A DNA stretch of 64,000 nt, taken from positions 74,689 to 138,688 of the forward strand of contig JAVZHQ010000002.1 in the NCBI GenBank assembly GCA_038998335.1, in the 5' to 3' direction. Of the stretch, positions 11,105 through 54,008 are shown piece by piece (the first letter of the stretch is position 1; every line of letters begins with the position of its first letter). The DNA comes from Candidatus Aenigmatarchaeota archaeon. GTDB lineage: Archaea > Aenigmatarchaeota > Aenigmatarchaeia > CG10238-14 > SCSR01. The translations under genes and the position numbers were made by a program. The notes below the pieces were generated by a model. That model did no database searches. It had not been told where the DNA came from and saw only the letters and a program-made list of their open reading frames with translations.

Positions 11105-11105
11105 A

Positions 11106-12655: not shown

Positions 12656-12709
12656 AATAAAGAGTTGAATTTCTATTAAATTAAATTTTAAATTACATAA
12701 ACTTGATTT

Positions 12710-13312: not shown

Positions 13313-14589
13313 AGATAGAAGAAACTGCCTCAAAAATTTTGAAGAATTGGGTTTTATGCGACCATTGTCTAGGCAGACTATTTGCACAAATTTTAACTGG
13401 TCTTTCAAACGAGGAAAGAGGGAGAGTTATTAGATTGTTTATGGCTTTCTTGCTAGATTCAGGAGAAAAAATTGATTTAAACCCATCGAACTTTTATGGT
13501 ATAAAATTCAGGAACATAAAGTTAGAAACAAAACCAGAAAAATGCTTTATTTGTAAAAATATTTTTGAAAAGAAAGAAGAGCTAGCTAAAAAAATAAACG
13601 AGAAATTAAAAGGAATAGAGTTTGAAACGTTTGTTATAGGATCGAAAATTCCTGCAGAAATTGAAAAAGCAGAAGAAAAAGTTTGGGAGGAAACAGGAAT
13701 AGAGTTTGTTGAATCTATTAAATCAGAAATCAACAGAGAAATCGGTAAAGAAGTAGAAAAAATAACAAAAAAAAGGTTTGAGCCAAGAAATCCAGATGTT
13801 ACTATTCTTGTTGATGCAGAAAAAGGAAAAGTTAAAGTTGAAATAAGAAGTTTATACATTTTTGGAGGTTATAAAAAGCTTGTTAGAAATATTCCTCAAT
13901 CTAAATGGATTTGTAGTAGATGTAAAGGAAAAGGTTGCAGCTATTGCAAAGGAAAAGGAAAGTTATATCCAACTTCTGTTCAAGAGATAATAGAAAAACC
14001 TTTGCTTAAAACTACTAATGGAAAAAGAAGTTTTATGCATGCAACAGGTAGAGAAGACATTGACGCAAGATGCCTAGACTACAGGCCTTTTATAATAGAG
14101 ATTGAAAACCCAATAAAAAGGAAAATTGACTTAAAAAAAGTTGAAAAAGAAATTAACCAGTCAAAAAAAGTTAAGGTTAAAGGTTTAAGAATAACTGAAA
14201 AAGAATTTGTAAAAATTTTAAAGGCTGCAAGATTAGATAAAACTTACTTAGCTGAAGTTGAGTTTGAAAAAGCTATAGACAAAAACAAGTTGAAAGATTT
14301 AAAAGTCTTGAAAGAGCAACATATACTTCAAAAAACTCCTCTAAGAGTGTTGCACAGAAGAGCCGACAAGTTTAGGAAAAGAAAGGTGAAAAGTATCTCT
14401 TACAAGCTTTTGGGGAGGAAAAAGCTTCTTTTAAGAATTAAAGCTGAAGCTGGGCTCTATATAAAAGAATTGATAACTGGAGATGAAGGAAGAACTAAGC
14501 CAAGCGTACAGGAAATTTTAGGAAATAAAGTTAAAAAGATAAATTTAGATGTTATAAAAATACATGTAAAAAAACTAAAAGTTTGGTGA
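13300..14589 (+). CDS. pus10: tRNA pseudouridine(54/55) synthase Pus10
   Basis: CDHCLGR, GREDIDAR, TPLRVLHRRAD, GLYIKELITGD. Confidence 0.95.
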   Translation: MVKMKIEETASKILKNWVLCDHCLGRLFAQILTGLSNEERGRVIRLFMAFLLDSGEKIDLNPSNFYGIKFRNIKLETKPEKCFICKNIFEKKEELAKKINEKLKGIEFETFVIGSKIPAEIEKAEEKVWEETGIEFVESIKSEINREIGKEVEKITKKRFEPRNPDVTILVDAEKGKVKVEIRSLYIFGGYKKLVRNIPQSKWICSRCKGKGCSYCKGKGKLYPTSVQEIIEKPLLKTTNGKRSFMHATGREDIDARCLDYRPFIIEIENPIKRKIDLKKVEKEINQSKKVKVKGLRITEKEFVKILKAARLDKTYLAEVEFEKAIDKNKLKDLKVLKEQHILQKTPLRVLHRRADKFRKRKVKSISYKLLGRKKLLLRIKAEAGLYIKELITGDEGRTKPSVQEILGNKVKKINLDVIKIHVKKLKVW

Positions 14590-14593
14590 AGCT

Positions 14594-14878
14594 ATGGTCA
14601 AGAAATCAAGAGGAATAAGGGCAAAAACAAGAGAAAAATTGAGACAAAAACCAGGCTATAGGCCAGCGATAACAAAATTTTTGCAGGAATTTAAGGAAGG
14701 GCAAAAAGTTGCTATACTGCAAGAACCTTCTTCTCATTCAGGAATGCCGCACCCAAGGTTTAAAGGAAGGATAGGAAAAGTTATAGGGAAAAGAGGAAAA
14801 AGTTATATTGTTGAAATCACAGATGGAAATAAGGTTAAAAAGATAATATCAAGACCTGAACACTTAAAGGCGATATAA
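14594..14878 (+). CDS. rpl21e: 50S ribosomal protein L21e
   Basis: GMPHPRFKGRIG, RPEHL. Confidence 0.96.
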   Translation: MVKKSRGIRAKTREKLRQKPGYRPAITKFLQEFKEGQKVAILQEPSSHSGMPHPRFKGRIGKVIGKRGKSYIVEITDGNKVKKIISRPEHLKAI

Positions 14879-15205
14879 ATGAAAATAATAGCAGAAGAAA
14901 CAATAACTAATAGCGAAGCAAAAGAAATACTCGAAAATAGAGCGAAAGAAATCGAGCTTAAGTATGAACAAAAGAATGCTCTAGAAATTTTAAGGAAATT
15001 TGTCAAGCTTGATTCTGAAAAGGCAAAAAAGCTTGCTGAAGAACTTAAAAAAATTGAAAAATTAAGAGAAAAACAAATAGTTGAAATAATCAACTTTTTA
15101 CCGGAAGATAAAGATGAACTTAGAGTTGTACTTCATAAAGAATACAACAGCTTTACACCCGAAGAAATCGACATGATTTTAGAAACAGTTAAAAAATATA
15201 TCTAA
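14879..15205 (+). CDS. rpoF: RNA polymerase subunit Rpo4 (F)
   Basis: ELKYEQ..ALE, P..KDELR; conserved position after rpl21e. Confidence 0.9.
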   Translation: MKIIAEETITNSEAKEILENRAKEIELKYEQKNALEILRKFVKLDSEKAKKLAEELKKIEKLREKQIVEIINFLPEDKDELRVVLHKEYNSFTPEEIDMILETVKKYI

Positions 15206-15224
15206 ATCCTTTCTGGTGGTTTAA

Positions 15225-15773
15225 ATGATGAAAGATGAATACGCAATAGTTTTAGATTTTCTTCCTCATGGTAAGCCTGGAGATAGAAAAGCTGAACCTG
15301 TAGCTCAAGCTATAGGAGAAAAATTCTTCAACCTTTTAGAGTTAGCTATAAGAGAAAGCACAGAAGTTAAACCAAAGGAAAGAGTTTATATCGGCGAGGA
15401 TAAAAGGGATAAGGTAAAGTATATAAGAGGGAGAATAAGCTATAACGAGCTTACAAATTTTGCAAAAAGCGAACTAGAGGAAGTTTTGCTAGAACAAATA
15501 ACAAAAGATGAAAAAAGATTTGTTAATGTTTTCAACAAAGCTGGACCTATATCGACAAGAATGCACGCCTTAGAATTACTTCCTGGAATAGGTAAAAAGC
15601 ATCTTTGGGACATAATAAACGAAAGAAAGAAAAAGCCATTTGAAAGTTTTAAAGAATTGCAAGAAAGAATAGAAATGCTTCCTGACCCAAAGAAAATGGT
15701 CTTAAAAAGAATTTTAAATGAATTAGAAGGAAAGGATAGGCACAGGCTTTTTGTTGGTTTTTCATTTACTTAA
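15225..15773 (+). CDS. DUF655 putative RNA-binding protein
   Basis: VLDFLPHG, RMHALELLPGIGKK; conserved position after rpoF. Confidence 0.9.
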   Translation: MMKDEYAIVLDFLPHGKPGDRKAEPVAQAIGEKFFNLLELAIRESTEVKPKERVYIGEDKRDKVKYIRGRISYNELTNFAKSELEEVLLEQITKDEKRFVNVFNKAGPISTRMHALELLPGIGKKHLWDIINERKKKPFESFKELQERIEMLPDPKKMVLKRILNELEGKDRHRLFVGFSFT

Positions 15774-15988
15774 CTTTCTTCTCCTATTTCTTTCACTGCT
15801 ACTGCAACAGAAATCCAAAGTAATCCGCCAACTAAAAAGAGGACAAAAGCAATTAGCAAAGCCAAAGAAAAGCTTAAGTCACTAACTCCCAAACCTTTTT
15901 CCAAATGCCCAGCAATCATAGAAGCAAAAAGTATGCAGGCAGTACCTAAAACCCAAAAAGTTACTATTTTCCAATTCTTCTTTACCAT
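15770..15988 (-). CDS. small two-TM membrane protein
   Basis: 72-aa hydrophobic ORF. Confidence 0.6.
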   Translation of the reverse strand: MVKKNWKIVTFWVLGTACILFASMIAGHLEKGLGVSDLSFSLALLIAFVLFLVGGLLWISVAVAVKEIGEES

Positions 15989-16019
15989 TTTCTCTAAAAT
16001 TAGATAAGTTTTTTAAAGC

Positions 16020-16277
16020 TTATAAACTTCTTGTTATTCCTGTAACTTCAACTTCCCCTACTTCTTCAATTTCTTTCAGTTTTTTCTCTAGATTTTCTAC
16101 CTCTCCTCCTGCGTCTGGAACTATTTTAACAACATGAATAGCAACTAAACCAAAAGCAATAGGCTCGCGGGAAATTTTTTCTGGTTTTATCGCATTCTCT
16201 ATTTTTTCTTCTAACTTATCTAAGTCAACTTCAACAGTTTTTGGAAGAACCTTTAATCCAACTATTACTTCCCCCAT
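16020..16277 (-). CDS. ef1b: elongation factor 1-beta
   Basis: MGEVIVGLKVLP...EPIAFGL; start at ATG 16277. Confidence 0.93.
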   Translation of the reverse strand: MGEVIVGLKVLPKTVEVDLDKLEEKIENAIKPEKISREPIAFGLVAIHVVKIVPDAGGEVENLEKKLKEIEEVGEVEVTGITRSL

Positions 16278-16279
16278 CT

Positions 16280-16441
16280 TTACGGCCCCGTAAACCCACA
16301 TTTTGGGCAAGTATACTTATTGCTTAAAGCTTTACAAGTTGAGCATCTAACTATTAAAGCTTCCCCGCAACTTGGACATTCAAACTTAACGAAATTTTCT
16401 TTTGCTAAGATGTTAACCTTACAAGTTAAGCATTTAAACAT
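16280..16441 (-). CDS. zinc-ribbon protein (DUF1610/HVO_2753-like), absent from ORF track
   Basis: Hand translation MFKCLTCK...FECPSCG...RCSTCK...YTCPKCGFTGP; conserved position upstream of ef1b. Confidence 0.9.
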   Translation of the reverse strand: MFKCLTCKVNILAKENFVKFECPSCGEALIVRCSTCKALSNKYTCPKCGFTGP

Positions 16442-40710: not shown

Positions 40711-42912
40711 GTGAAAAAAATGGCAAAGAAAGAGATGATTGAAAGGATCAAAGAAGCGATGAAAGATCCAGCAAGAATAAGAAATGTTGCAACAAGCTCT
40801 CATGTACATCATGGGAAAACTGCTTTAACTGATAACTTGATGGCTGGAGCAGGAATGTTAGCAGAAGAAATGGCAGGAAAAGTAATGTACACTTGGTTTG
40901 ATGAACAAGAGAGAAGAAGACAACTAACAATTTATGGAGCAAACGTTTCCATGGTTCATGAGTATGAAGGTAAAGATTATTTAATTAACTTAGTCGATAC
41001 TCCTGGTCATGTGGATTTTGGTGGTGATGTTACTAGAGCAATGCGTGCTGTTGACGGCACAATAGTTCTTGTATGCGCAGTTGAGGGAATAATGCCGCAA
41101 ACAGAAACAGTTTTCAGACAAGCTTTGAGAGAATACGTTAAGCCAGTTTTATTCATTAACAAGACCGACAGGCTGATAAAAGAGTTAAAATTATCACCAG
41201 AAGACATGCAAAAAAGGTTTGAAGAAATTATTCGTGATGTTAATATTCTGATTCAAAAGTATGCCCCTGAAGAGTTTAAGAATAAATGGTTAGTAAGCGT
41301 TGCAAATGGTAGTGTAGCGTTTGGTTCAGCAACTAAAAGATGGGCTATTTCTATCCCATACATGCAAAAAACTGGAATAACTTTTAAGGAGATTATTGAA
41401 CTCACATTAGCTGGAAAGGAAGATGAGCTAGCAAAAAAAGCTCCTCTACATCAAGTTGTTTTAGACATGATTATTAAACATTTACCAAATCCTTTAGAAG
41501 CTCAGAGGTATAGGCTATCAAAAATTTGGAAAGGAGATTTAGAATCAGAAATAGGGAAGCAAATGTTAGCATGCGATGCAAACGGAAGACTTGCTGCAAT
41601 AGTCACAAAAGTAGTTCCTGACCCACATGTAGGTTTTGTTGCAACAGCAAGAATTTTCTCAGGAAAAGTTTACAAAGGAAAGGACGTTTACTTGATAAAC
41701 CAGCATAAACAAGAAAAAATTCAGCAAGTTGCTGTTTACAAAGGAATATTGAGAATTCCTGTTGAAGAAGTTACTGCAGGAAACATCGCTGCAATAGTTG
41801 GAATTCCTGAAGCTTTCACAGGAGAAACTGTTTGTGAACCAGACAATATAATAGAACCTTTTGAAGAAATAAAGCATCTGTTTGAGCCTGTAGTGACAAA
41901 AGCTATTGAGCCAAAAAATCCTATGGAATTACCAAAGCTTGTTGAAGCTTTAAAGAGAATTGGAAAGGAGGATGCTGTTTTGCAAGTGAAAATAAATCAA
42001 GAAACAGGAGAATACCTTGTTTCTGGCTTAGGTGAACTTCATCTGGAGGCAAAAGTTGAGAATAAGCTTAAAGAAATGGGAATAGAAGTTGAGATGAGTA
42101 AGCCTATAGTTGTTTATAGAGAAACAATTTTTGATAAGTCTCCTACTATTGAAGGAAAAAGCCCAAACAAGCATAATAGATTTTACATAATGGTTGAACC
42201 TTTGGAAGAAAAAATATACCAAGCTATGAAAGAAGGAGAAATTCCAAGCACAGTAGAAGTTAAAACTAAAATGTTAGACTTGTTCAAAAAACTTTCTAAC
42301 TTAGGAATGGATTATGACGAGGCAAAAAGAATAGTTGTAATTTACAATAAAAACATGTTTATCGACTTAACAAAAGGTGTGCAATTTATGAATGAAGTTA
42401 TAGAAATGGTTAAAGATGCTTTTAAGGAAGTTATGGATGATGGACCATTAGCAAGAGAACCTTGCACTAAAGTGAAAGTTAAGCTTGTAGATGCTGAGCT
42501 TCATGAAGACCCTGTGCATAGAGGCCCAGGACAAATAATGCCTGCTGTAAGGTATGCTATAAGGCAGGGAATGCTTAAAGCTAACGCTACCTTGCTTGAA
42601 CCTAAACAAATAATAAGGATTGATGTACCTACTGAGCTAATGGGCGAGGCTACAAGAGAAGTTGAGAACAGAAGAGGGCAAATTTTAGACATGAAAGAAG
42701 AGAGGGGGGCAAGCGTTATAATAGCAAAGGTTCCTGTTTCTGACATGTTTGGTTTTGATGCTAGCTTAAAATCTGCAACCTCAGGAAGAGGATTTTATAG
42801 CTTGATAGAAACAGTTTTTGAAAAATTACCGAATGAACTAAGAGACGAAGTAATAAAAAGCATAAGGAAGAGAAAAGGTCTACCTGAAGAAATTCCTAAA
42901 CCTGAAGTATAG
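40711..42912 (+). CDS. fusA: elongation factor EF-2
   Basis: DTPGHVDFGGDV, NKTD, GLGELHLE, diphthamide loop HEDPVHRGPGQ. Confidence 0.96.
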   Translation: MKKMAKKEMIERIKEAMKDPARIRNVATSSHVHHGKTALTDNLMAGAGMLAEEMAGKVMYTWFDEQERRRQLTIYGANVSMVHEYEGKDYLINLVDTPGHVDFGGDVTRAMRAVDGTIVLVCAVEGIMPQTETVFRQALREYVKPVLFINKTDRLIKELKLSPEDMQKRFEEIIRDVNILIQKYAPEEFKNKWLVSVANGSVAFGSATKRWAISIPYMQKTGITFKEIIELTLAGKEDELAKKAPLHQVVLDMIIKHLPNPLEAQRYRLSKIWKGDLESEIGKQMLACDANGRLAAIVTKVVPDPHVGFVATARIFSGKVYKGKDVYLINQHKQEKIQQVAVYKGILRIPVEEVTAGNIAAIVGIPEAFTGETVCEPDNIIEPFEEIKHLFEPVVTKAIEPKNPMELPKLVEALKRIGKEDAVLQVKINQETGEYLVSGLGELHLEAKVENKLKEMGIEVEMSKPIVVYRETIFDKSPTIEGKSPNKHNRFYIMVEPLEEKIYQAMKEGEIPSTVEVKTKMLDLFKKLSNLGMDYDEAKRIVVIYNKNMFIDLTKGVQFMNEVIEMVKDAFKEVMDDGPLAREPCTKVKVKLVDAELHEDPVHRGPGQIMPAVRYAIRQGMLKANATLLEPKQIIRIDVPTELMGEATREVENRRGQILDMKEERGASVIIAKVPVSDMFGFDASLKSATSGRGFYSLIETVFEKLPNELRDEVIKSIRKRKGLPEEIPKPEV

Positions 42913-42938
42913 TATTCGCTGATTTCGTCTGTTAAAGT

Positions 42939-42953
42939 GAAAAAGTTTAAATA
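42939..42953 (+). promoter_or_regulatory. putative BRE/TATA promoter of EF-1a
   Basis: GAAAAAG-TTTAAATA upstream of GGGGGTG SD and start codon. Confidence 0.5.
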
Positions 42954-42994
42954 TATTTAAATACTCAATTTAAATTTAAGTTAGTGGGGGTGAA

Positions 42995-44275
42995 TTGATG
43001 CCTGCAAAACCACACATAAACATAATGACTGCAGGACATGTTGATGCTGGTAAATCAACTCTTATAGGAAGATTACTATACGAAACTGGAGCCATAAGAG
43101 ATGAAGAATTAAGAAAGTTAAAGGAATTGGCTACTCAACTTAAGAAAGAAACTTTCGAATATGCTTTTGTTATGGACAAGCTTAAAGAGGAAAGAGAAAG
43201 AGGTTTAACAATAGATATAATGCATCGCCCTTTTGAAACACAAAAATGGTTTTTCACTATAATCGACTGTCCTGGTCATAGAGATTTTGTTAAAAATATG
43301 ATAACTGGAGCAAGCCAAGCAGATGCTGCCATTTTTGTTATTTCAGCAAAGGAAGGAGAAGGTGTGCAAGAACAAACAAAAGAGCATGCTTGGCTCATGA
43401 AAGTTCTTGGAATTAAACAAATTATTGTTGTTTTGAACAAAATGGATACGGTAAACTATGACGAAAAAAGGTTTAACGAAGTAAAAGAGGAAGCAATAAA
43501 GTTGCTTAAAACTATTGGTTACAAAGTTGAAGAAATTCCTTTCATTCCAATTTCAGCTTACCATGGAGATAATGTTACTAAGAAATCTGATAAAACGCCT
43601 TGGTATAAAGGTCCTACCTTAGTTGAAGCCTTAGACACTTACATAAAAGAGCCAGAAAAACCTGTTGGAAAGCCATTAAGAATTCCAATCCAAGATGTTT
43701 ACAGCATAACAGGAGTTGGTACTGTTCCAGTAGGGAGGGTTGAAACAGGAGTTTTAAAAGTTGGCGACACTCTAGTTTTTGAACCACCAGGAGTAAAAGG
43801 TGAAGTTAAATCTATAGAAATTCACCATCAACCAATTCAAGAAGCTAAACCAGGAGATAATGTTGGGTTTAATGTAAGAGGAGTGAGCAAAACCGATATA
43901 AAGAGAGGGGATGTAGCAGGCCATCCTGACAACCCTCCAACTGTAGCAAAAGAGTTTACTGCACAAATTGTTGTTTTGCAACATCCAACAGTAATTAGTG
44001 CTGGTTATACTCCAGTTTTTCACTGTCATACTGCTTCAGTAGCTTGTACTATTACTGAAATAATTGCAAAGATTGACCCAAGAACAGGTGCAGTAATTCA
44101 GGAAAAACCTGATTTCATAAAAACTGGAGATGCAGCAAAGATTAGAGTTGTTCCTACCAAACCAATGGTTATTGAGAAGCAATCTGACTTTCCTGAGTTG
44201 GCAAGGTTTGCTATTCGTGACATGGGAATTACAGTAGCTGCTGGAGTTTGCTTGGATGTAGTAAAGGCCAAGTAG
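42995..44275 (+). CDS. tuf: elongation factor EF-1 alpha
   Basis: [37 protein letters not shown]. Confidence 0.97.
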
Positions 44276-44292
44276 TTATTTAGTATTATTTC
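44272..44292 (+). repeat. left terminal inverted repeat GTAGTTATTTAGTATTATTTC
   Basis: exact reverse complement of 51484-51504; contains the tuf TAG stop. Confidence 0.92.
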
Positions 44293-44337
44293 CCTGGCTC
44301 TTTTTTATTATTTTATTAGGCTGAGGCTTTATAAAGC

Positions 44338-44733
44338 TTGTGGTTAATTCTATTAATTGATATGGTTACATCTAAAAAAATACTAGAGATTAAAATAAAA
44401 AGAGATTGGTATGATTATGTTATGCTAATCTTGGTGGGGATTGGTACCTTTAGCGCATTATTTGGCGTGACTATACAAGTTCCAAAAATACAAGGCGCAT
44501 TAGAAAATATTAGCAAATCATATAATGCAAGTTTAAGTGAAAGATTATCAATCAAAGAAACTTTTACGACATGTGTCACGCATGCAAAAACACCACACAT
44601 AACAGAATGCTATACATGCAATGAATACCCCATAGAACAAATTAATGCAATTCTGCGTGTGTGCAATATAGAAATAACAGACTCTCTTACTAATACAACA
44701 AACAAAACACAAAAACTCGAATTAATAAAATAG
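44338..44733 (+). CDS. element-borne membrane-anchored hypothetical protein
   Basis: one TM then Cys/Thr-rich region; ATG start possibly 44362. Confidence 0.55.
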   Translation: MWLILLIDMVTSKKILEIKIKRDWYDYVMLILVGIGTFSALFGVTIQVPKIQGALENISKSYNASLSERLSIKETFTTCVTHAKTPHITECYTCNEYPIEQINAILRVCNIEITDSLTNTTNKTQKLELIK

Positions 44734-44817
44734 AAAAAATGTTTAAATTTCCATATTTTTTATTTCTCCTTTCCTTTATTATAAAATTATTTTTTTTCAG
44801 TCTTTTGGTTGAAGAAT

Positions 44818-45051
44818 CTAATACATTGAGCTTTGTTGAGTTGCTAAATATATGAAAACAACAACTACAATAAAAACTACAACTATACAAATAAATAGAA
44901 ATATATTACCCGTAGATATGAAGAAATCACCGGTTCCGGGTAAAATAGCATTCATTGTCCTACCCAAAACATTGCCAAAATAAGCCAATAAACCTAACGC
45001 TAATATTATTGAACCCATTATTCCTAGCACCACCCATATATTTATTTCCAT
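44818..45051 (-). CDS. element-borne two-TM protein
   Basis: 77-aa hydrophobic ORF. Confidence 0.6.
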   Translation of the reverse strand: MEINIWVVLGIMGSIILALGLLAYFGNVLGRTMNAILPGTGDFFISTGNIFLFICIVVVFIVVVVFIYLATQQSSMY

Positions 45052-45105
45052 ATCTCATGAGATGAAATCAAAAATATTTATTTTTATTCTTTGTTAATTG
45101 AATTA

Positions 45106-45453
45106 TTAACACTTACCAATAGTAGTAGTAATAGTATATCCTCTTTCAATCATCTTGCTGACTAACTCTTCTAAACTTACCCACTTCCTTTTCTTATTGC
45201 CTACCAAAAGATAGCACACGCACTCAACGATGTCTCTTGCTACACTATTATCTCTACTACTATTACTATCTACTATTACATTTGGCCCCATTATCTCTAC
45301 TACTTTATCCAGCGCAAACTGAGGATTTCTCATGTAGCTTCTAAGAAAAGGTAAGGTTAATCTTATACCGGCTTCTGTCACTACTAAAACATTATTAAGG
45401 TATAACTCGTTTACTATTTCTTCTATTTGTTGTAAACTTATTGAAATACTCAT
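45106..45453 (-). CDS. element-borne hypothetical protein
   Basis: ORF 45106..45522; ATG at 45453 overlaps the upstream stop. Confidence 0.55.
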   Translation of the reverse strand: MSISISLQQIEEIVNELYLNNVLVVTEAGIRLTLPFLRSYMRNPQFALDKVVEIMGPNVIVDSNSSRDNSVARDIVECVCYLLVGNKKRKWVSLEELVSKMIERGYTITTTIGKC

Positions 45454-45719
45454 CGAATCACCGCATTGCTTAATAATCGCATCCTTAGAACGATGCCGTG
45501 AGAGGCTCTTCTTTCGCACCAACCGTTTTTAACCCATAATGAAAGAATTTGTCTACCTATTCTCCAACAAATCTTTCTGTGACTAAACCAGAATCTTATA
45601 TAGCTATAATTTATCACTTTGTTGGGTGTTGTGTAGAAAGCGGGCAACTCCTCTAAAAATTTCTCAAACAAATATTTGGCATATTTGTTCTCCATATGAT
45701 TATTAACCATTAGAATCAC
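45450..45719 (-). CDS. element-borne small basic protein
   Basis: 89-aa ORF in a tightly overlapping minus-strand run. Confidence 0.5.
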   Translation of the reverse strand: MILMVNNHMENKYAKYLFEKFLEELPAFYTTPNKVINYSYIRFWFSHRKICWRIGRQILSLWVKNGWCERRASHGIVLRMRLLSNAVIR

Positions 45720-45794
45720 CCCGATTTCCAGATGAAGGTGATTCCTTCCACCATTTTCTTAGGACCTTAACATATTCTGGCAGGTTGTCTTCAT

Positions 45795-45929
45795 TCATTT
45801 TCTCTCACCTTTTCGCAATTCTTTCTCAAGAAGAACTCTTATAAAACCTGAAAAAGTTGAACCTCGTTTGTAGGCTTTCTTTTTTGCTTTTTCCTTCAAA
45901 CTTTTCGGTATTGAAATTGTAGCCCTCAT
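45795..45929 (-). CDS. ribbon-helix-helix (CopG-like) protein, absent from ORF track
   Basis: MRATISIPKSLKEKAKKKAYKRGSTFSGFIRVLLEKEL. Confidence 0.75.
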   Translation of the reverse strand: MRATISIPKSLKEKAKKKAYKRGSTFSGFIRVLLEKELRKGERK

Positions 45930-46034
45930 GGCGCAAATTTAAGTAATCTAATGTTAAATTCGGGTAGGTATCAAAAAATGATACTACTTATCTCAACAAT
46001 TATTTAAAAATAGTTACGCCGAAATTATTTTTAG

Positions 46035-46400
46035 ATGTTTAAAAAGTTTAAAATAAAAATATTAGAGTTGCTCGTAAAAAATTCTGTAAACTCTTTTGAA
46101 AAAGCAATTAGAATGGATGTTTATGAAGAAAGGTTAATGAAAGAGATTGGAATTGAAAATAAAACTTACTTCTATAAGATATTGTACGAAATGGAGAGAG
46201 GAAAGGCTATAACAAGAGTCGCTCACGGCCCAACGAACCGTGTTTATGTTTATATGACACCGAGTCAATACGAGCGGGTTAAAAAACTACTTCCTATTCT
46301 GAATGATTTAGAACTTGTTTTAGGTCTTATTTTAGTTTCGAATAAAGACATTAATAGGATTGTGGATACACTATTGCAAAAAATTTACGAAAAGTCTTGA
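46035..46400 (+). CDS. wHTH-like regulator
   Basis: GIENKTYFYKILYEMERGKAITR helix-wing pattern; divergent from the RHH gene. Confidence 0.55.
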   Translation: MFKKFKIKILELLVKNSVNSFEKAIRMDVYEERLMKEIGIENKTYFYKILYEMERGKAITRVAHGPTNRVYVYMTPSQYERVKKLLPILNDLELVLGLILVSNKDINRIVDTLLQKIYEKS

Positions 46401-46595
46401 AATTCTGCAAAAGTGCTTTATTTTAAGTAGATATAATTTTTAAAGTAAGAATAAGAAATTTTTGAATCTTTTAACAAATCTTTAAGAGTAAATCTTTCTA
46501 AAATACCAAGTTTATCCAAATCTTTGACTTTTTCGAGAAATTCTTTAGATTTTGAGATAAATAGTATATAAAAATTTCATACCATAAATTAAATT

Positions 46596-46823
46596 ATGAG
46601 AGGCGAGCTCATGGAATTAAGTTGTCCATTCTGTGACAGGGGGAAAATAGAAGTCTGGTATATTCCAAGCTATATTAAAATTAGAAGAATATCTGGCTCA
46701 TTTGGTAAGGGTCACGCCTTTTCTAAAAGTGCTGATATTTGGATAGTAAAATCAGGTTGTCCTGTTTGTGGTAAATCACCAAATGAAGTAGAAAGAGAAT
46801 TAAAACGAAAGAGAATAATTTAG
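46596..46823 (+). CDS. zinc-ribbon protein
   Basis: CPFC...CPVCG. Confidence 0.7.
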   Translation: MRGELMELSCPFCDRGKIEVWYIPSYIKIRRISGSFGKGHAFSKSADIWIVKSGCPVCGKSPNEVERELKRKRII

Positions 46824-46833
46824 GTTATAAATT

Positions 46834-47499
46834 ATGTCAGAAATTGACAAACAATCTAAAATAATTTTAAAAAATGGAGAAATTTTATGTTCTTTACCAA
46901 TTACTGCTCATACAAGTAAAATCAGAGTAAAGAGAAATGGAGAACCTTTAGCCACGCGTCAAAAAAATCTTCTTGATAGTGACTTGATAGAATGGCAAAT
47001 TTCTTACTATAAACCAAATACAAACAAAGAACTTTTTGAAATTGGGTTGATGTTAAAAATTGCTTATGAAAATGGAATTATTTCTAGAGAAGAATTAAAA
47101 AATATTAAGGAATATGTCAAGAAAGTTGATAAAACTTTCTTTGAGAGTTATTCTTTTAGAGTTGAGAAGTTAGAAGAAAATTTTTATGATTTTATGGTGA
47201 TGTTGAGAGAATTTCCCTTTCTTCGTAAATTTTTTAGCGATGGTTGCTCTTTAGAAATAGAAATAAAACACAAGCAAAAAGCTGTCGGGTTTCAACCTAT
47301 GCTTTATATTTTTATTCCTTTAAAAAATGTAGTTTCAGAAAATGAGAATAATTTAATCGGAAGAAAAGCAAGGCCAAAAGAAAGAGTGATTTGGAAACCT
47401 AATAAAATACATATAATTGAAACAATTAAGGCATTTGCTATAGCTTCTAAGACTCATCTGAATGATATCAAAGAAATTCTTAACAGGATTGAATCCTAA
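46834..47499 (+). CDS. R.PabI-family restriction enzyme (HALFPIPE fold DNA glycosylase)
   Basis: LPIT..SKIRVKR, IEWQISY, KQKAVGFQPMLY resemble R.PabI-family motifs; convergent with a methyltransferase. Confidence 0.75.
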   Translation: MSEIDKQSKIILKNGEILCSLPITAHTSKIRVKRNGEPLATRQKNLLDSDLIEWQISYYKPNTNKELFEIGLMLKIAYENGIISREELKNIKEYVKKVDKTFFESYSFRVEKLEENFYDFMVMLREFPFLRKFFSDGCSLEIEIKHKQKAVGFQPMLYIFIPLKNVVSENENNLIGRKARPKERVIWKPNKIHIIETIKAFAIASKTHLNDIKEILNRIES

Positions 47500-48622
47500 A
47501 CTCTAAAATATCACTTTTTTTAATTGATTTGCTACCAACCCTAAAAGTTAGGTTTTTGAAATGTTCTTGATTTTCATTTAGTATTCTGCATATTTTTTCC
47601 TTAAGTTCTTTATCTTTGTCATATTTTTCTTTAAACTTAAACACATAAAACATGTCATTCAAAACATCTTTCTTTATGTTTATTAATCCAGCCCTACCGA
47701 CACTTGTATTACCAACTCTAACGATAGCTAGATAATAATCTGAGACATTTTCACCTACAGGGATTTCAATTTTTTCTGTTATGTTTGAACCAGAAACATT
47801 ATTATTCGTGTAGGATTTTTTATAATAAACTTTTTCATTTGATAAAAACTCATATAATGGAATTCCCTTAAGGCATACATTTTTCTTGTATAAGAATGAT
47901 TTTGGTATAAGCTCTTCAGTTAATAGATTGGACTTATCTAATATTTCCTCGACCTTCCTACCCTCTTCATAAATAAGAATTATTTTATCTTTAAACTTTT
48001 CAACATTAGTAAATATGGCAAAACAGCATGGTATGGGCTCATCGACCCATTTTTTATTGTTTTGATACACTATAATGGTAGAAAATCTATTTAGAATTTC
48101 TCTTTTAACTTCCAAATTTTTTCCTTTTATAAAAAAGGAAATTGGTAGAACAAAACCAATAGTCGAATTTTCATCTTTTAAATGTTTAATAGACTTAAGA
48201 ATAAAGACATTCTCTATTTGTATTTTCTCTTTTTTAACCAATTTTTTTGTTAGGTATTCTTTGGGGTGAATAGGACTATTAAAATATTTTTTTGGAAAGT
48301 AGTAGCTTTCCTTTATGTTATATTTCGTGAAAGGCGGGTTACCTATAATTAGGTCAAATTTTTTATCTAAAGGGTAAAGGAAAAAGTCACAAGGTTGCTT
48401 TGTGAATTGTGGGTCAATCTCACAACCTTCTATGTTATTAAATCCTTTCTTTTTAAGAATTTTTATAAAATTACCTGTTCCAAAGGAGGGCTCTAAAATC
48501 TGAATTTTTTTATCATATTTTTTAAATTTCAGAATTAAATCTATAACTTTTTTTACTATTTCCTTTCTTGTAAAATATTGACCTAAAATGAATTTTTTAT
48601 TTATTTTCAAATTTATCACCAT
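47480..48622 (-). CDS. N6-adenine DNA methyltransferase, gamma class
   Basis: GQYFT, LEPSFGTGNF (motif I) before GNPPF (motif IV). Confidence 0.9.
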   Translation of the reverse strand: MVINLKINKKFILGQYFTRKEIVKKVIDLILKFKKYDKKIQILEPSFGTGNFIKILKKKGFNNIEGCEIDPQFTKQPCDFFLYPLDKKFDLIIGNPPFTKYNIKESYYFPKKYFNSPIHPKEYLTKKLVKKEKIQIENVFILKSIKHLKDENSTIGFVLPISFFIKGKNLEVKREILNRFSTIIVYQNNKKWVDEPIPCCFAIFTNVEKFKDKIILIYEEGRKVEEILDKSNLLTEELIPKSFLYKKNVCLKGIPLYEFLSNEKVYYKKSYTNNNVSGSNITEKIEIPVGENVSDYYLAIVRVGNTSVGRAGLINIKKDVLNDMFYVFKFKEKYDKDKELKEKICRILNENQEHFKNLTFRVGSKSIKKSDILEFRIQSC

Positions 48623-49263
48623 ATATTAGCCAATCTTTTATTGGCAAGTTTAACATACTTTGGATTAATTTCAAATCCTATAAAATTTCGATTGAGTTGT
48701 TTACAGGCGATAGCTGTGCTTCCACTTCCAATAAAAGGGTCTAAGATTAAATCATTTTCTTTGGTGAACATTATCAGTATATCTCGAATAAAATGCTTGG
48801 GTTTAGGTGTAGGGTGGTCTATATAGCCTTCATCAGGTTCGATCATCTTTGTTCCAGCTATATGCTCAAATAAATCTTTATTAGGTTGAATAATTTTCGG
48901 GTTTCCTTTCTTGAAAATGAAGCAAGACATATATTTTGTAATTCCTATTGGAGATTTAACATTTGCTTTTGGAGAATAAAAAATTATTTGCCAAAAGTAG
49001 ACAAATGGGTTGTTTATAAATAGTTTTGGTAGAAATTTTGTGCTAAAAAATGTAATGAAGAAACTATTATTTTTTAAAACCCTATAACATTCGGGTAAAA
49101 TTTTATAGAATGTGGTTAAATCCTCGTCGTTACGAATTCCCTCTTTTTTCAAGCCGTAAGGTGGGTCTGTGATAATTGCATCTATGGTTTCATCCGGTAT
49201 CTCTTTAATTAATTTTAAAGCATCGCCCAATACTATTTTGTTAATAAATTTGTCGATTGTCAT
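48616..49263 (-). CDS. N4-cytosine/N6-adenine DNA methyltransferase, beta class
   Basis: TDPPY, HPTPKP, LDPFIGSGST. Confidence 0.92.
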   Translation of the reverse strand: MTIDKFINKIVLGDALKLIKEIPDETIDAIITDPPYGLKKEGIRNDEDLTTFYKILPECYRVLKNNSFFITFFSTKFLPKLFINNPFVYFWQIIFYSPKANVKSPIGITKYMSCFIFKKGNPKIIQPNKDLFEHIAGTKMIEPDEGYIDHPTPKPKHFIRDILIMFTKENDLILDPFIGSGSTAIACKQLNRNFIGFEINPKYVKLANKRLANIW

Positions 49264-49416
49264 TATTCACACCATTTAAACTATGTTATTATCTTTTGAT
49301 ATCCATTTTTTTCTCAGTTAGCATTATAGTAATATATAACACTACCTATATTTAAAATTTAATAACCCTAACACTAAGGTTATAGATTTATATACTACTA
49401 AACACTTAAAGAATAT

Positions 49417-49551
49417 ATGGCCAAACGAATTTCTACAAGTATAAAAATAGACCCGGAAATCCTTAAACAAGCAAAACATTATGCAATTGATGAGGGTATT
49501 ACTTTTTCTGAATTGGTAGAAAGAGCATTAAAAAATGAAATAAAAAAATAA
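49417..49551 (+). CDS. ribbon-helix-helix protein, absent from ORF track
   Basis: MAKRISTSIKIDPEILKQAKHYAIDEGITFSELVERALKNEIKK; divergent from the MTases. Confidence 0.75.
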   Translation: MAKRISTSIKIDPEILKQAKHYAIDEGITFSELVERALKNEIKK

Positions 49552-49705
49552 ATTATCCGAAAAAATAGTTCGATTCTTATTTGAATTTTAATATTATCCA
49601 AACATTCAAAGATGTTCCAAAAGATTTGAGTAGAGAAGCTAAAATCGTTATTGGAACTGCATGGGTTTTATGGAATGAAATACCATATGAGTTTACGATT
49701 TGATT

Positions 49706-50281
49706 TTAATTTTTTTCTAAACTCCTTCTTTTCATCTCTTCTTCCTTCTTTTTCATATAAGCTTCATAAATTATGTCAAATTTTTCCAAAATAGCTGATT
49801 GATGGGGTTTTTCGATTTTTTGAATAATTGTAGGAGATTGGTACATTTCTCCTAAAACTTTCATTAAATGAATTTTTACAAGTAAAAGCCTGTCTATATT
49901 CTTATCCAACCTTCCTCCATCCTTTACTTCATACCACTTAGCCACTTCAAGTCTTCTATCTATATCTTCAAGCTCATTCCACATTAAATTTATTAATTGC
50001 TCCACATTTCTTGTGTTATATTTTTTGATTATAATTTTTTTGAAAGCACAAATCGCTCCTGTCTGATAAAAGCTACACCTATCTCTTATATAGCAACTAT
50101 CACAATCAATTATTTTAAATCTTCTCGCTCTCATCCCATGCTTAAATGCTGCCAAATTTCCTTTTACAAACCTTCCTGTTTTAGGGTCTCTGTCAATCTG
50201 CTTTACAACTGTTTCTCTGCTATCCTTAATTTTATTTTCACCGTTTGTGTTTTCTTGACCAACGGTGACCATAAACATCAC
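49706..50281 (-). CDS. hypothetical protein with terminase-small-subunit-like motif and 4-Cys cluster
   Basis: RDPKTGRFVKGN.AAFKHG then CDSC..RC..C; start overlaps integrase stop. Confidence 0.55.
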   Translation of the reverse strand: MMFMVTVGQENTNGENKIKDSRETVVKQIDRDPKTGRFVKGNLAAFKHGMRARRFKIIDCDSCYIRDRCSFYQTGAICAFKKIIIKKYNTRNVEQLINLMWNELEDIDRRLEVAKWYEVKDGGRLDKNIDRLLLVKIHLMKVLGEMYQSPTIIQKIEKPHQSAILEKFDIIYEAYMKKKEEEMKRRSLEKN

Positions 50282-51444
50282 TCCTCAAACAAATATTCCA
50301 AACCTCTCTCCTTGACCATTTGCCTAAAAACCTCTTTTACACTTTCGTCCCTATTTGCCAACACCAAAAGAAAATCTTTAACAAAATCATCAAAATCTTT
50401 CCTCACCTTTTCAGCTTCCAAAATCATTTTAATATCCAAAGGAGAGCCACACCTTTTACAAAAACTAAAAGATGATGGGTTGACTTCACCACATTTAAAA
50501 CATTTCTTAACTTCCTTGTTCATAACTTCTAAGAGCTTTTCATCTATCTCCTTTCCTGATAAATGATAATAAACAGAAGCCATCTTGCTATCTTTAGTCC
50601 AACCGAATATTTCCTTCATCACAGCTTCTGGTAAATGTTTTGCTAAATGAGTAGCTCTTGCGTGTCTGAAAGCATGAGGATTCACTCTTTTTTTAATTCC
50701 AACTTTCTCAGCCAACTTTTTTAAAATAGATTCAACTTGCACATAGGTTATTAATCCTCGTTTGTTTTTGCCCAAAGATATCCACACATAAGCTTCTGGG
50801 TCGTTTCTTAAAGGATGTACATCTAACCAATTTTCTAATTCCTTAACATACTCTATTATTCTCACTCTTCTCATTCCAGTTTTTCCGTCAACTATTAACA
50901 CACAGCCATGCTCATCAAAAATTATATTTTTAATTTTTAGGGAAAGCAACTCTCCTACTCTGCAACCCGATTCATAAAGTACGAGAACTAGGGCTTTATC
51001 TCTAAGATTGTTTGCTACTTTAGCCATCCTTTCTATTTCTTCTTTAGTCAAAATCTCTTCTGGTAAGAACTTGTTTTTCAACTTATGATTTAACTTAATC
51101 CATTCTACTTCTTCAGGATAAGTATTTGAGTTTCTCAACCATTTATAAAACCTCTTTAGCTCGCATTTAATCGCAGTTTTAGATTTCTCACTTCCGTACC
51201 TATTCTCTACTTCACTAACAACAGCTATGATATCCTCTTTTGTAGCTTCTGTAAATGGTTTGTTGAGAATTTTTGCTATCGTGGACAAAGCCCAAAGAAC
51301 ATTCCTCAAAGTAGCTTTTCTGAAGCCGTTTGCATTAAGAAGATTGAAGAACTTGAAGATAAGCTGTTTGTTCTCTTCGCATATAGAAGAGTTTTTAATT
51401 CTCTCAATATCTTTTTCCAAGCTTCTGGCAGTATTTAAGCTCAT
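50278..51444 (-). CDS. tyrosine recombinase/integrase with C-terminal zinc ribbon
   Basis: ESGCRVGE (R), DGKTG (K), HAFRH, FGW, VYYHL (Y); CFKCG..CKRCG. Confidence 0.95.
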   Translation of the reverse strand: MSLNTARSLEKDIERIKNSSICEENKQLIFKFFNLLNANGFRKATLRNVLWALSTIAKILNKPFTEATKEDIIAVVSEVENRYGSEKSKTAIKCELKRFYKWLRNSNTYPEEVEWIKLNHKLKNKFLPEEILTKEEIERMAKVANNLRDKALVLVLYESGCRVGELLSLKIKNIIFDEHGCVLIVDGKTGMRRVRIIEYVKELENWLDVHPLRNDPEAYVWISLGKNKRGLITYVQVESILKKLAEKVGIKKRVNPHAFRHARATHLAKHLPEAVMKEIFGWTKDSKMASVYYHLSGKEIDEKLLEVMNKEVKKCFKCGEVNPSSFSFCKRCGSPLDIKMILEAEKVRKDFDDFVKDFLLVLANRDESVKEVFRQMVKERGLEYLFEE

Positions 51445-51483
51445 AATTTTGCCTACCTTCTTTTTAGCCTAAATATGCCAGAA

Positions 51484-51504
51484 GAAATAATACTAAATAA
51501 CTAC
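51484..51504 (-). repeat. right terminal inverted repeat GAAATAATACTAAATAACTAC
   Basis: exact reverse complement of 44272-44292; 40 nt upstream of the integrase start. Confidence 0.92.
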
Positions 51505-51596
51505 CATAGCTTTATGTAGTTAAGGCAAAGTAATTCTTTTATTTTTTCTTTGTTGTTTATAATAAAAATTAGTAAAATTAAGATTTTCTCAAAAAA

Positions 51597-51773
51597 TTAT
51601 TTCTGCTTGCTTGCAAAATAAGCTACCCCAATTCCTAGAAGTGCAAAAGCAAAAGCTATTACACCCAAAACCCAAGCTTGCTCTTTTGCGAATATCAAGA
51701 AGAAAAAAACTATTGGTATAAATATACCTGCAAGAGCAGGAGCAATTCCAGTTATATCATGTTCTTTTTTCAT
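51597..51773 (-). CDS. 58-aa two-TM microprotein, absent from ORF track
   Basis: MKKEHDITGIAPALAGIFIPIVFFFLIFAKEQAWVLGVIAFAFALLGIGVAYFASKQK. Confidence 0.6.
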   Translation of the reverse strand: MKKEHDITGIAPALAGIFIPIVFFFLIFAKEQAWVLGVIAFAFALLGIGVAYFASKQK

Positions 51774-51895
51774 ACTTAATGCTTGTTTTACAAGCTTATA
51801 AGCATTGTTTAACTATCAAAAGTTCAAAACAAACTTGTAAGAATTAATCAAGATTCCCTAAAATATTTAAATAAGCTTTACAAATCAAAATTCTA

Positions 51896-51909
51896 GAAAA
51901 GTTTAAATA
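51896..51909 (+). promoter_or_regulatory. putative BRE/TATA promoter for the LAGLIDADG-rps10-cmk unit
   Basis: GAAAAG-TTTAAATA, nearly identical to the element upstream of tuf, about 33 nt before the ATG. Confidence 0.5.
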
Positions 51910-51941
51910 ATTTAACTCAATAACACAAGAGAAGTGGTATT

Positions 51942-53075
51942 ATGAAAATTGATTTAGAAAACATAGCAAAAGAAGTTTTTAAGAAAAAACCTTTGGTAAT
52001 AAAAAAAATAGACAAAAATCTAATTAAAGTTTTCTATAAAGGTAAAAGTCCAAGAAACACACCAAAACCAATAATTCTTCCAAAAATAATAAATTTGGAT
52101 GAAGAAATTATTGAGAATGTTGGAATGTACATTGGTGATGGAACTCTCTCACCAACCAGAAAACATCAAATAGAATTTACTACTATAGATGTAGACATGG
52201 CAAAAAAATTCCTCGATTTTTTAACGAAAAGATGGTGTGTTAAAATACAAAATATAACCTTTATTTTAAAGTACAACAAAGGAAACAAAAAAACAATAAA
52301 AGAAAAATGGAAAAAATATCTAAATGTCCCAAGTGAAAAACTTCTAGTTAAAAAAGAAACTAAATATAATGCTCGAGATTCTCTGACAATTATTGTTAAC
52401 AGCTTGATTTTTACTCAAGTATTCAAAAAATTTATTAAAAAATCACTACCATTAATTAAACTAAATTCTAAATTAATAAAAGCATTTCTAAGAGGAGAAT
52501 TTGCAGCTGATGGAAAATTTATAGTAGAAAAAGATACCAATACCTACTATATCTCTGAAATAACCTTCTGTTATAACTATCCTAAAGAGTTATGGTTACG
52601 GAATTACTTAGTCGAATGCCTAACGAAAGAAGGAATAACAAAAATCAATGAAAACCGAAAAGGCTTTATTAGAATTACCGGCTGGAATAATTATTTTAAA
52701 TTATGGAAGATGGGAATTTTTAACTGTTGTAAGAGAAAAAAAGAAAAATTTCTATCAACGATTAAACAATCAAAAATTCATCTTATGGTAGATGTTGAAA
52801 CAATTAAACAAATTATAAATTCTTCGAGTCTGACCAAAAAGGCCATAGCAAATAAAGTTGGTATAAATAGATCAAATCTTTTTAGAGTTCTAAATGGTAA
52901 ACAACTTATGACAATTGAACAATTTAATGCACTTACTCAATTAATTGATAATCATTTAAATACTTATCAAAATCAAATAAGTAAAATTAGGATTGGTAAA
53001 CTTACTTATTTGCCATTTTCCCGAGAATTTATAAATTTTGTTGCAAAAGAAAAATTGATAAAAGGTGATAGGTAA
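51942..53075 (+). CDS. free-standing two-motif LAGLIDADG endonuclease with C-terminal XRE-like HTH
   Basis: VGMYIGDG and FLRGEFAADG motifs; LTKKAIANKVGINRSNLFRVLNG HTH. Confidence 0.85.
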   Translation: MKIDLENIAKEVFKKKPLVIKKIDKNLIKVFYKGKSPRNTPKPIILPKIINLDEEIIENVGMYIGDGTLSPTRKHQIEFTTIDVDMAKKFLDFLTKRWCVKIQNITFILKYNKGNKKTIKEKWKKYLNVPSEKLLVKKETKYNARDSLTIIVNSLIFTQVFKKFIKKSLPLIKLNSKLIKAFLRGEFAADGKFIVEKDTNTYYISEITFCYNYPKELWLRNYLVECLTKEGITKINENRKGFIRITGWNNYFKLWKMGIFNCCKRKKEKFLSTIKQSKIHLMVDVETIKQIINSSSLTKKAIANKVGINRSNLFRVLNGKQLMTIEQFNALTQLIDNHLNTYQNQISKIRIGKLTYLPFSREFINFVAKEKLIKGDR

Positions 53076-53425
53076 ATGCAAATAGCAAGAATAAAACTTT
53101 TAGGAAGAGACCCAAAAGAATTGGATAGCATTTGCAATGAAATAAAGGAAATAGCAAAAAAATTAGGTGTAGATTATAGAGGACCGATTCCCTTACCAAC
53201 AAAAAAATTGAAAGTAGTAACTATGAAAACTCCTTGTGGCGACGGGACACTAAACTAGACATCTAGTTTAGCCCGAAAGGCCATGGAAATGCTACTTTTG
53301 ATAGATGGGAGATGAGAATTCATAAGCGTCTAATAGATGTTAAAGCTGATGAAAGAGCTTTAAGACAAATAATGAGAATTAATATTCCTACTAATGTTCA
53401 CATTGAAATCAAGCTTTTAGGTTAA
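53076..53425 (+). CDS. rps10: 30S ribosomal protein S10, spliced: join(53076..53248,53278..53425), 106 aa
   Basis: Exon 1 MQIARIKL...GPIPLPT...KTPCGDG; exon 2 ...[14 protein letters not shown]...RQIMRI..P..V.IEI in another frame; 29-nt removal restores the frame. Confidence 0.92.
53249..53277 (+). other. predicted 29-nt bulge-helix-bulge mRNA intron in rps10
   Basis: CGGG-AC^A-CTAAACTAGA-CA-TCTAGTTTAG-CCCG-AA^A. Confidence 0.85.
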
Positions 53426-53456
53426 TTTTTAACTTTTAAAAAAATAACTTTTTCTT

Positions 53457-54008
53457 ATGAAGAAAAAGTTGGTAATAGTTATTTCTGGCCCTCCTGGAGT
53501 TGGAACATCAAGCGTAGCAAGAGAAATAGCTAAAAAATTAAAGCTAAGATATCTTTCACCTGGAAAAACCTACAAAAGTTTTTTGAGTGAAAAAGAAGCG
53601 AAAGCAGCTTTGGAATTCTGGAAAACTGAATTTGGAAGAAGTAAAAAATTACATAAAGCCTTAGATGAAAGCCAAGTTAAGGAAGCAAAAAAAGGTAACC
53701 TAGTAATTTGTGGTAAGCTTTCAATTTATTTTCTCAAAGACTTAGCTGACTTAAAAGTTTGGTTAGAAGCTCCCTTAGAAATAAGAGCAAAAAGAACTGC
53801 AGAAAGAGATAATATTCCTTTTGAAGAAGCTTTGAGACAAATAAGTGAAAGAGAAAATATTGAAAGAAAAAAATGGAAAGAAATATATGGTTTTGATTAT
53901 TTCAACCAAAAAAAAGATGCTGACCTTGTTTTAAATACTTCAAACCTAACTCTTGAAGAAACTGTAAATAAAATTCTAGAGTTTATGAAATCAAAAAGCT
54001 TGATTTAA
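53457..54008 (+). CDS. cmk: cytidylate kinase, archaeal type
   Basis: ISGPPGVGTSS, WLEAPLEIRAKR..ERD, YG.D, D..LNT. Confidence 0.85.
   Translation: MKKKLVIVISGPPGVGTSSVAREIAKKLKLRYLSPGKTYKSFLSEKEAKAALEFWKTEFGRSKKLHKALDESQVKEAKKGNLVICGKLSIYFLKDLADLKVWLEAPLEIRAKRTAERDNIPFEEALRQISERENIERKKWKEIYGFDYFNQKKDADLVLNTSNLTLEETVNKILEFMKSKSLI

Follow-up and report, generated by a model that had tools for sequence, protein, structure and literature searches.

We describe here a mobile element of about 7.2 kb in the genome of a Candidatus Aenigmatarchaeota archaeon (assembly GCA_038998335.1, here G000), located in a 64,000-nt stretch of contig JAVZHQ010000002.1 (positions 74,689 to 138,688, forward strand) that we call the window and whose numbering is used throughout. 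The element carries an intact tyrosine integrase gene and shows perfect 21-nt inverted repeats near its ends. An earlier note, made from the sequence alone, had recognised this element and its tyrosine recombinase, with limits 9-16 nt from those found here, and had described it as transposon-like or, alternatively, as an invertible cassette. Neither description is supported by the locus, because a direct repeat of a target gene flanks the element, the inverted arms lie inside that repeat, and the layout recurs in relatives. Instead, it is very probably an integrative element inserted in the 3′ end of the gene for elongation factor 1α (EF-1α), with inverted arms that are the two halves of its own palindromic attachment (att) site.

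A probable attachment site at the EF-1α gene end

The sequence GTAGTTATTTAGTATTATTTC at 44272-44292 recurs as its exact reverse complement at 51484-51504. The previous report of a perfect inverted repeat was upheld by sequence read-out and by a shuffle test: at up to three mismatches, the window contains two copies of the 21-mer (0 in 100 shuffles), and the whole assembly (1,009,365 bp, 9 contigs) contains it at the same two places only. The motifs CTGGC and TAGGCT were seen inward of both arms as described before, and 44293-44337 forms an imperfect continuation of the inverted repeat. The integrase likewise lies near the right end, with its 388-aa open reading frame (ORF) starting 39 nt inward of the right arm, and the four tRNA genes of the window are all away from both ends, in agreement with the claim that there is no tRNA target. 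A three-mismatch match in another genome (G003:C84) was taken as chance, given its position inside a coding gene.

The absence of a direct att repeat, also claimed in the earlier note, was not confirmed. Just outside the arms, the segment 44256-44275, which comprises the last EF-1α codons and the stop codon, is identical at 17/20 positions to 51514-51533, the sole match in the window at three mismatches or fewer; 17/20 was reached by 0 of ~5000 random pairs of 40-nt windows. The longest perfect block in this repeat is the 7-nt sequence ATGTAGT, present at 44256-44262 and 51514-51520, and the distance from this core to the arm is exactly 9 nt at both junctions. The right copy (attR) reads VVKAK-stop with a T-rich tract after it. 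In the family member G012, the native EF-1α gene end with the DNA that follows it is 91% identical to 51514-51547 across 34 nt, and the corresponding region of G005, from the same genus, is similar. Since the attR copy is native-like in its reading and in its match to G012, it is probably the original EF-1α end displaced by the insertion, and the gene end from 44263 onwards would be element-derived while encoding the same amino acids (VKAK). The gene for elongation factor 2 (EF-2; 40711-42912) precedes EF-1α, and the ribosomal protein S10 gene starts at 53076. A composition profile was uninformative on the limits of the element, as its interior has 27-30% GC and the host DNA at 51500-53000 likewise. 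The features of the junctions, together with the integrase, are as follows.

42995-44275, plus strand: EF-1α (aEF1A/tuf) gene, the proposed integration target; 426-aa ORF, 70-98% identical to EF-1α of 40 related genomes
44256-44275, plus strand: attL, left copy of the imperfect direct repeat; 17/20 identity to 51514-51533
44272-44292, plus strand: integrase-distal arm (left inverted repeat of the earlier note), overlapping the EF-1α stop codon; from 21-mer searches
44293-44337, plus strand: element end region with CTGGC, a T-rich tract and TTAGGCT/TATA-like motifs, by sequence reading; conserved in the same-genus genome G001 and metagenome contig L094
50278-51444, minus strand: tyrosine integrase, XerA-like, intact, with a C-terminal zinc ribbon; 388-aa ORF, PF00589 E 8.6e-27
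51466-51483, minus strand: putative integrase promoter motif between arm and integrase; near-identical motif after the arm in G049 and G078
51484-51504, minus strand: integrase-proximal arm (right inverted repeat of the earlier note); also found with the integrase in G054 and L090
51505-51533, plus strand: attR, comprising an element segment (51505-51513, 9 nt), the core (51514-51520, 7 nt) and, up to 51533, what looks like the displaced native 3′ end of EF-1α including a stop codon of its own; from the G012 alignment and the end of homology in G054

The integrase belongs to the tyrosine recombinase superfamily, scoring 94.4 bits against PF00589 (cut-off 27.1). Its best solved relative is XerA of P. 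abyssi (4a8e, E 1.2e-21), with which the R, K, HxxR, W/H and Y positions aligned: opposite the XerA residues stand the R in CRVGEL, the K in GKTG, HAFRHAR, the W in GWT and the Y in VYYH, and we assume that they have the catalytic roles of XerA's R, K, HxxR, H/W and Y. The protein falls short of the XerA chromosome-dimer resolvases (NCBIfam NF040815, 121.5 bits against an equivalog cut-off of 220), and its gene is in a mobile element that is also present in another family. It also differs from the SSV-type ("suicidal") integrases, whose genes contain attP and are split on integration, in that the ORF is intact and the att core is 70 nt upstream of its start.

The arrangement suggests how the element may have been inserted. 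An element of about 7.26 kb (about 44263-51520) would have recombined with the host EF-1α 3′ end through its XerA-like integrase, with the crossover falling in the 7-nt ATGTAGT common to attL and attR, which would make this block the region of strand exchange. On the right-hand side of the attL crossover, the last codons (VKAK), the stop codon and a T-rich tract, a possible substitute terminator for EF-1α located in 44293-44337, would come from the element, and the old gene end would be left at attR. The excised circle is predicted to contain one symmetric site, arm(21)-9-core(7)-9-arm(21), with the crossover at its centre; the integrated element looks bounded by inverted repeats because integration splits this palindrome. 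The arms are likely to be binding sites of the integrase or of an accessory protein, a motif that G000, G049 and G078 have in common next to the inner edge of the integrase-proximal arm may be the integrase promoter, and the element may still be able to excise.

Relatives of the element and the layout of their attachment sites

The genome G005 (same genus, EF-1α 95% identical) has a native EF-1α end, no 21-mer and no integrase match at E 1e-20 or better, and the distance from its EF-1α stop codon to a conserved block upstream of S10 is ~450 nt. Because arm and integrase are missing and this distance is short, the locus is an empty site. With its direct repeat of the target on either side and this unoccupied counterpart in G005, the G000 locus shows what is expected of a site-specific integrative element. 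When the G005 spacer was compared with 51534-51850, the alignment was poor, and the gene end and the S10-upstream block alone aligned. The breakpoints that the empty site in G005 and the native-like segment 51514-51533 indicate lie away from the inverted repeats, in the direct repeat. This is one of two outcomes that the earlier note had set against its own view; the other, a 21-mer dispersed as a host motif, did not turn up, as the genome contains two copies.

In another genome of the genus, G001 (EF-1α 98% identical), EF-1α is followed by the left arm and ~60 nt of the element end, then by an unrelated 421-aa gene and S10. We read this locus as a remnant of an earlier insertion, although it could instead be sequence native to the genus. 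The 421-aa gene (L036, G001:C17, 11984-13249) has a weak Fucose_iso_C match (E 0.0032) and no match in G000, and it may be either cargo of a decayed element or a host gene.

Among five metagenome contigs matching the 21-mer, L091 and L094 have it in perfect form behind EF-1α genes with DNA identities of only 70% (L091) and 88% (L094), and the perfection of the arm behind such diverged genes indicates that it travels with the element. A third, L090, contains a 98%-identical integrase module preceded by an imperfect arm-like copy, a 25-nt spacer (9+7+9) and the arm, with an S10 gene close by; this is the predicted full palindrome, in this case apparently the product of an insertion into an older remnant, and an integrated junction rather than a circle. 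The other two, L092 and L093, have no further similarity to the window and were set aside as chance or unrelated matches. Viral contigs gave 0 matches to the 21-mer.

Integrase homologues at E 1e-20 or better were present in 55 of the 118 genomes of the order. The earlier note had suggested looking for the 21-mer beside such homologues in other genomes, where it was indeed found with the integrase in L090 and in G054, a genome of another family. The G054 integrase is 99% identical, and the shared DNA, which comprises the arm, the integrase and a 191-aa ORF, extends over 1920 bp at 97.5% identity (window 51516-49600). The chromosomal flanks of G054 show 66-72% identity to G000 and are not syntenic. 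The homology breaks off at 51516. This position is within the 7-nt core, and a crossover in the core would be expected to leave such a break.

Twenty regions around integrase homologues were fetched, and 24 integrase copies were screened for direct repeats upstream of the integrase and beyond. By eye, att-like repeats were accepted in eight elements: that of G000 and those of G114 (13 nt), G049 (12), G115 (16, at a tRNA-Asp 3′ end), G035 (13), G053 (13), G078 (15, at a tRNA-Thr 3′ end) and G057 (12). ARAGORN called the tRNA-Thr (G078) and tRNA-Asp (G115) genes at their repeats, and no tRNA at the att repeats of G049, G053, G035 and G057. Exact inner inverted arms were found in five of the eight, with lengths of 21 nt in G000, 20 in G114, 13 in G049, 13 in G035 and 11 in G115, each matched by at most one of ~300 random window pairs; the outer flanks of all eight gave inverted matches of 5-7 nt only. 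In all five arm-bearing elements the centre of symmetry falls inside the direct repeat, and the arm sequences are unrelated between elements. In G114, whose integrase is 47% identical, the element measures 11.1 kb and also carries a restriction-modification (R-M) system; its direct repeat is 13 nt long, its inner arms match perfectly over 20 nt, and its spacer is 25 nt long, as in G000 and L090. At another locus (L081, G099:C153, ~8850-16370), two integrase units stand in tandem with identical blocks of 38-224 nt upstream of each integrase, and this pair looks like a tandem array at one site.

Alternative explanations and known systems

The stretch is present in hot-spring metagenomes of six studies, and the contigs of four public runs, a form of data that drops rare forms, were compared over 42500-54000. 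An independent 11,624-nt contig of the probable source run matches 42500-53377 throughout without a single difference. Both arms are also bridged in data from three other studies, the right one by contigs at 51019-51534, 50993-51511 and 51272-51523 and the left one by contigs at 44247-44349 and 43994-44335. These spanning contigs rule out an assembly artefact in which an element contig was joined to the chromosome at a common 21-mer, an explanation prompted by the length of the repeat, which equals a common minimum k-mer size (k = 21), and further contradicted by similarity that extends past 21 nt. No credible inversion, excision or empty-site joint, including a skip from ~44262 to ~51521, was found in the contigs of the four runs, where rare forms could be missed; the joints listed there have sides of 20-39 nt and look like noise.

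Several observations weigh against an integrative element with a split palindromic site. Of the 20 positions of the direct repeat, 3 are mismatched, and the perfectly matching block is short. The contigs of the four runs contain only the integrated form, with neither a circle nor an empty-site allele of the same strain. The G001 locus has neither the right arm nor the integrase. The G054 copy, which is cut off by the contig end on its far side, stands beside a pfkB-like gene and not EF-1α; the choice of target is therefore not strict, and secondary integration sites appear to be usable. Across the integrase family, 16 of the 24 copies gave no recognised att repeat (many of them at contig ends, several within 5 kb of one, and one pair, in G099, a tandem duplication), three of the eight accepted elements have no significant inner arm (exact matches of 7-8 nt, in the random range), and the spacer measures 31-39 nt in three more distant elements. 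The assignment of the G114 target as a tRNA comes from reading the sequence, and ARAGORN and Rfam called none there.

The G001 locus bears most directly on an alternative in which the left arm and the ~60 nt after the EF-1α stop codon are native DNA of the genus, and the element carries an inverted copy and was inserted downstream by another event. Such a history would account for an arm and ~60 nt after EF-1α without an integrase in G001, and the native EF-1α flank of G018 does have the first 11 nt of the arm. We nevertheless consider it improbable, in view of the perfect 21-mer behind EF-1α genes of 70-88% identity (L091, L094), its association with the integrase away from EF-1α in G054, and its absence from G005 and G012. 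It would also leave the native-like EF-1α end at attR and the exact 9-7-9 symmetry unexplained, and the same geometry occurs in G114 with unrelated arms. Less probable again is an invertible cassette, in which the integrase would flip the 7.2-kb segment at the 21-mers and could thereby place itself downstream of the strongly expressed EF-1α gene. Perfect inverted repeats with a tyrosine recombinase gene beside one of them are what such a cassette would show, and the protein scores weakly against the tyrosine-type DNA invertases of NCBIfam (34.5 bits, cut-off 221; E 1.5e-8). Against it, the common sequence outside the arms is directly oriented, the arm as read lacks the evident internal dyad and spacer of a complete recombination site, and relatives pair such arms with direct repeats at tRNA ends, the signature of integration; the lack of a strand-changing joint in the four runs adds a weak argument, as contigs drop rare forms.

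Tn916-type conjugative transposons use a tyrosine recombinase and have inverted ends. The element resembles them in its recombinase and in its imperfectly or perfectly inverted ends, and an inverted-repeat-ended transposon (Tn916-like or insertion sequence-like) that recognises terminal repeats would explain both the 21-nt inverted repeats and the 97.5%-identical integrase end at another kind of site in G054, with the flanking repeat as a target-site duplication. This origin is very unlikely, since the flanking repeat (17/20) consists of two diverged versions of one gene end rather than a fresh duplication, and 9 nt of element DNA lie beyond the right arm. Moreover, the element sits at a specific site whose sequence is repeated directly at both ends, and the same EF-1α position is used on at least four further sequences (G001, L090, L091, L094); this re-use of one 3′ end, counting G000, sets the element apart from Tn916-type and other transposons with inverted ends. 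Pfam, PHROG and NCBIfam profile searches recognised no transposase, conjugation genes or Xis in it, nor any capsid or replication genes.

An integrative element that carries its own palindromic site thus remains by far the preferred reading. A more tentative proposal, which we regard as possible but rather doubtful, is that this integrase family of small-genome archaea has a modular attachment site, with two perfect arms of 11-21 nt that are free to differ completely from one element to the next and a 25-39-nt spacer with a central crossover, half of which copies the end of an essential host gene (EF-1α; tRNA or tRNA-like). If integrase recruitment depended solely on the arms and target choice solely on the spacer, a spacer swap would be enough to retarget the element. 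Such modularity would explain the movement of near-identical modules between archaeal families and could provide a compact, perhaps heat-tolerant integration tool.

Archaeal elements usually integrate in tRNA genes. Among bacterial systems, phage 21 and e14 integrate in the 3′ end of icd and carry a substitute gene end, and they share with the present element an insertion in the last codons of a housekeeping gene whose protein is kept intact by an element-borne replacement. They have lambdoid integrases with multiple arm-type sites, whereas here there is one symmetric arm pair. The Cre/loxP site has a 13-8-13 structure. The Xer/dif site consists of two 11-nt inverted repeats around a 6-nt spacer, according to passages of a review (PMC8371274). 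As in these two systems, perfect dyad symmetry surrounds a short asymmetric centre in the site described here, and homologous recombinases have arms of wholly different sequence; the recombinase itself is most similar to XerA. Unlike in them, the arms are 20-21 nt long and stand 9 nt from a 7-nt centre (25-nt spacer). In addition, the arms are on the element site only and absent from the native host site, which resembles the asymmetry of lambda attP and attB rather than two equal sites.

The closest parallels are found in archaeal cryptic integrated elements with non-suicidal (pNOB8-type/XerA-like) integrases, which include insertions in the 3′-distal part of protein genes (passages in Krupovic et al. 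2019, PMC6563490; Badel et al. 2021, PMC8371274). Like the present element, they keep their integrase gene intact beside one of the att sites, are flanked by short direct repeats, replace the end of the target gene, and re-use a site in ways that leave remnants or arrays; for NitEve-E2, the passages describe a gene end, including a new stop codon, that is replaced by element DNA. They differ from the present case in that the host here is a small-genome DPANN archaeon. The passages do not name EF-1α as a protein-gene target; EF-2 appears in them as a target of casposons, which use Cas1 and no tyrosine integrase, and long perfect inner arms such as those found here are not mentioned. The review also asks, in the part concerned, whether protein-gene targets have the dyad symmetry needed by tyrosine recombinases (PMC8371274); here, the symmetry is carried by the element and not by the host site.

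Set beside these systems, the element is of the classical integrative kind; its host and target are unusual, and its attachment site is neatly symmetric. Searches limited to literature titles returned no relevant title for an Aenigmatarchaeota integrase in hot springs and no DPANN integrase title on such an element. The mobile elements of DPANN-type archaea are little described, and the locus is a clear example of site-specific integration in such a host; it identifies the EF-1α gene end as a probable integration target that is restored by the element, documents a recurring symmetric attachment-site layout that is biochemically testable, and points to recent transfer of the integrase module between two archaeal families with differing R-M cargos. 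For annotation, inverted repeats at the ends of integrase islands may be split attP arms, and we propose that the true att repeat be sought just outside them.

Cargo of the element and the neighbouring S10 gene

The remaining genes of the element are listed below.

44338-46823: five small ORFs, at 44338-44733 (plus strand), 44818-45051 (minus), 45106-45522 (minus), 46035-46400 (plus) and 46596-46823 (plus, zinc-ribbon-like)
46834-47499, plus strand: R.Pab1-like restriction endonuclease, cargo; PF09522, E 2.1e-11, 44.4 bits (cut-off 25)
47480-48622, minus strand: N6-adenine DNA methyltransferase of the Eco57I/N6_Mtase type, cargo; PF02384 E 1.2e-9, PF07669 E 6.5e-9, and PHROG methyltransferase matches
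48616-49263, minus strand: N4/N6 DNA methyltransferase, cargo; PF01555 E 1e-32, phrog_67 E 2.4e-50
49706-50281, minus strand: 191-aa protein travelling with the integrase; weak PHROG match to phrog_887, E 7.4e-11

The cargo is an R-M system. None of the five small ORFs scored above threshold in Pfam, PHROG or NCBIfam, and the segment 45113-45357 is 81% identical to part of metagenome contig L094. The 191-aa ORF is next to the integrase in G054 as well, 98% identical over residues 1-171 of 191, and its product is a possible accessory or directionality factor. In G054, the cargo as read from ORFs is a large N6-methyltransferase-type enzyme of more than 814 aa (L066, G054:C11, 14771-17212), inside which the contig ends, and in G114 it consists of an MjaI-like endonuclease and an N4/N6 methyltransferase (L070, G114:C1, 11287-13068). 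R-M systems seem to be the usual freight of such small elements in this lineage.

Downstream of the element, a 377-aa ORF at 51942-53075 with a weak LAGLIDADG_3 match (E 2.2e-4, below the cut-off) and helix-turn-helix-like matches is inserted exactly at the start of S10: in G000 its stop codon (53073-53075) abuts the S10 ATG (53076). G001 does not have this ORF; there, the 87-nt block that is found upstream of the ORF in G000 leads directly to the S10 ATG. The block is present in G005 too, on a contig that ends a few bases past it. The ORF looks like a free-standing homing-endonuclease-like gene that may use the S10 promoter.

The S10 gene itself (53076-53423) contains a 29-nt insertion at 53250-53279 that is absent from G001. 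It breaks the reading frame and contains an in-frame stop codon, and its removal restores the G001 protein sequence exactly. The predicted fold comprises a helix, a 4-bp helix and a hairpin with a 3-nt bulge per strand, resembling a bulge-helix-bulge splice site, with a dG of -25.5 and a z of -4.5 (0/200 shuffles as stable); the hairpin motif occurs once in the genome. S10 was present in 67 of 70 genomes of the family, and in ~10 of these 67 the match was split or contained a stop at roughly these codons (G000, G002, G004, G019, G062, G072, G079, G080, G082 and possibly G098, at a contig end). Over five distinct sequences of the insertion, 95.2% of cells pair and three pairs are changed on both sides, compared with 21-50% in slid controls; the double-sided changes in the helices are compensatory. 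In the three copies from genus g6, another insert occupies this place or one slightly shifted from it. We regard the insertion as a candidate mini-intron, which may be of greater interest than the element; in the titles and abstracts of the literature covered, cbf5 is the sole protein gene named with an intron of the bulge-helix-bulge type. Elsewhere in the window (4307-31747), three of the four tRNA genes called are 87-99 nt long (Pro, Ser, Ala), which suggests that they contain introns.

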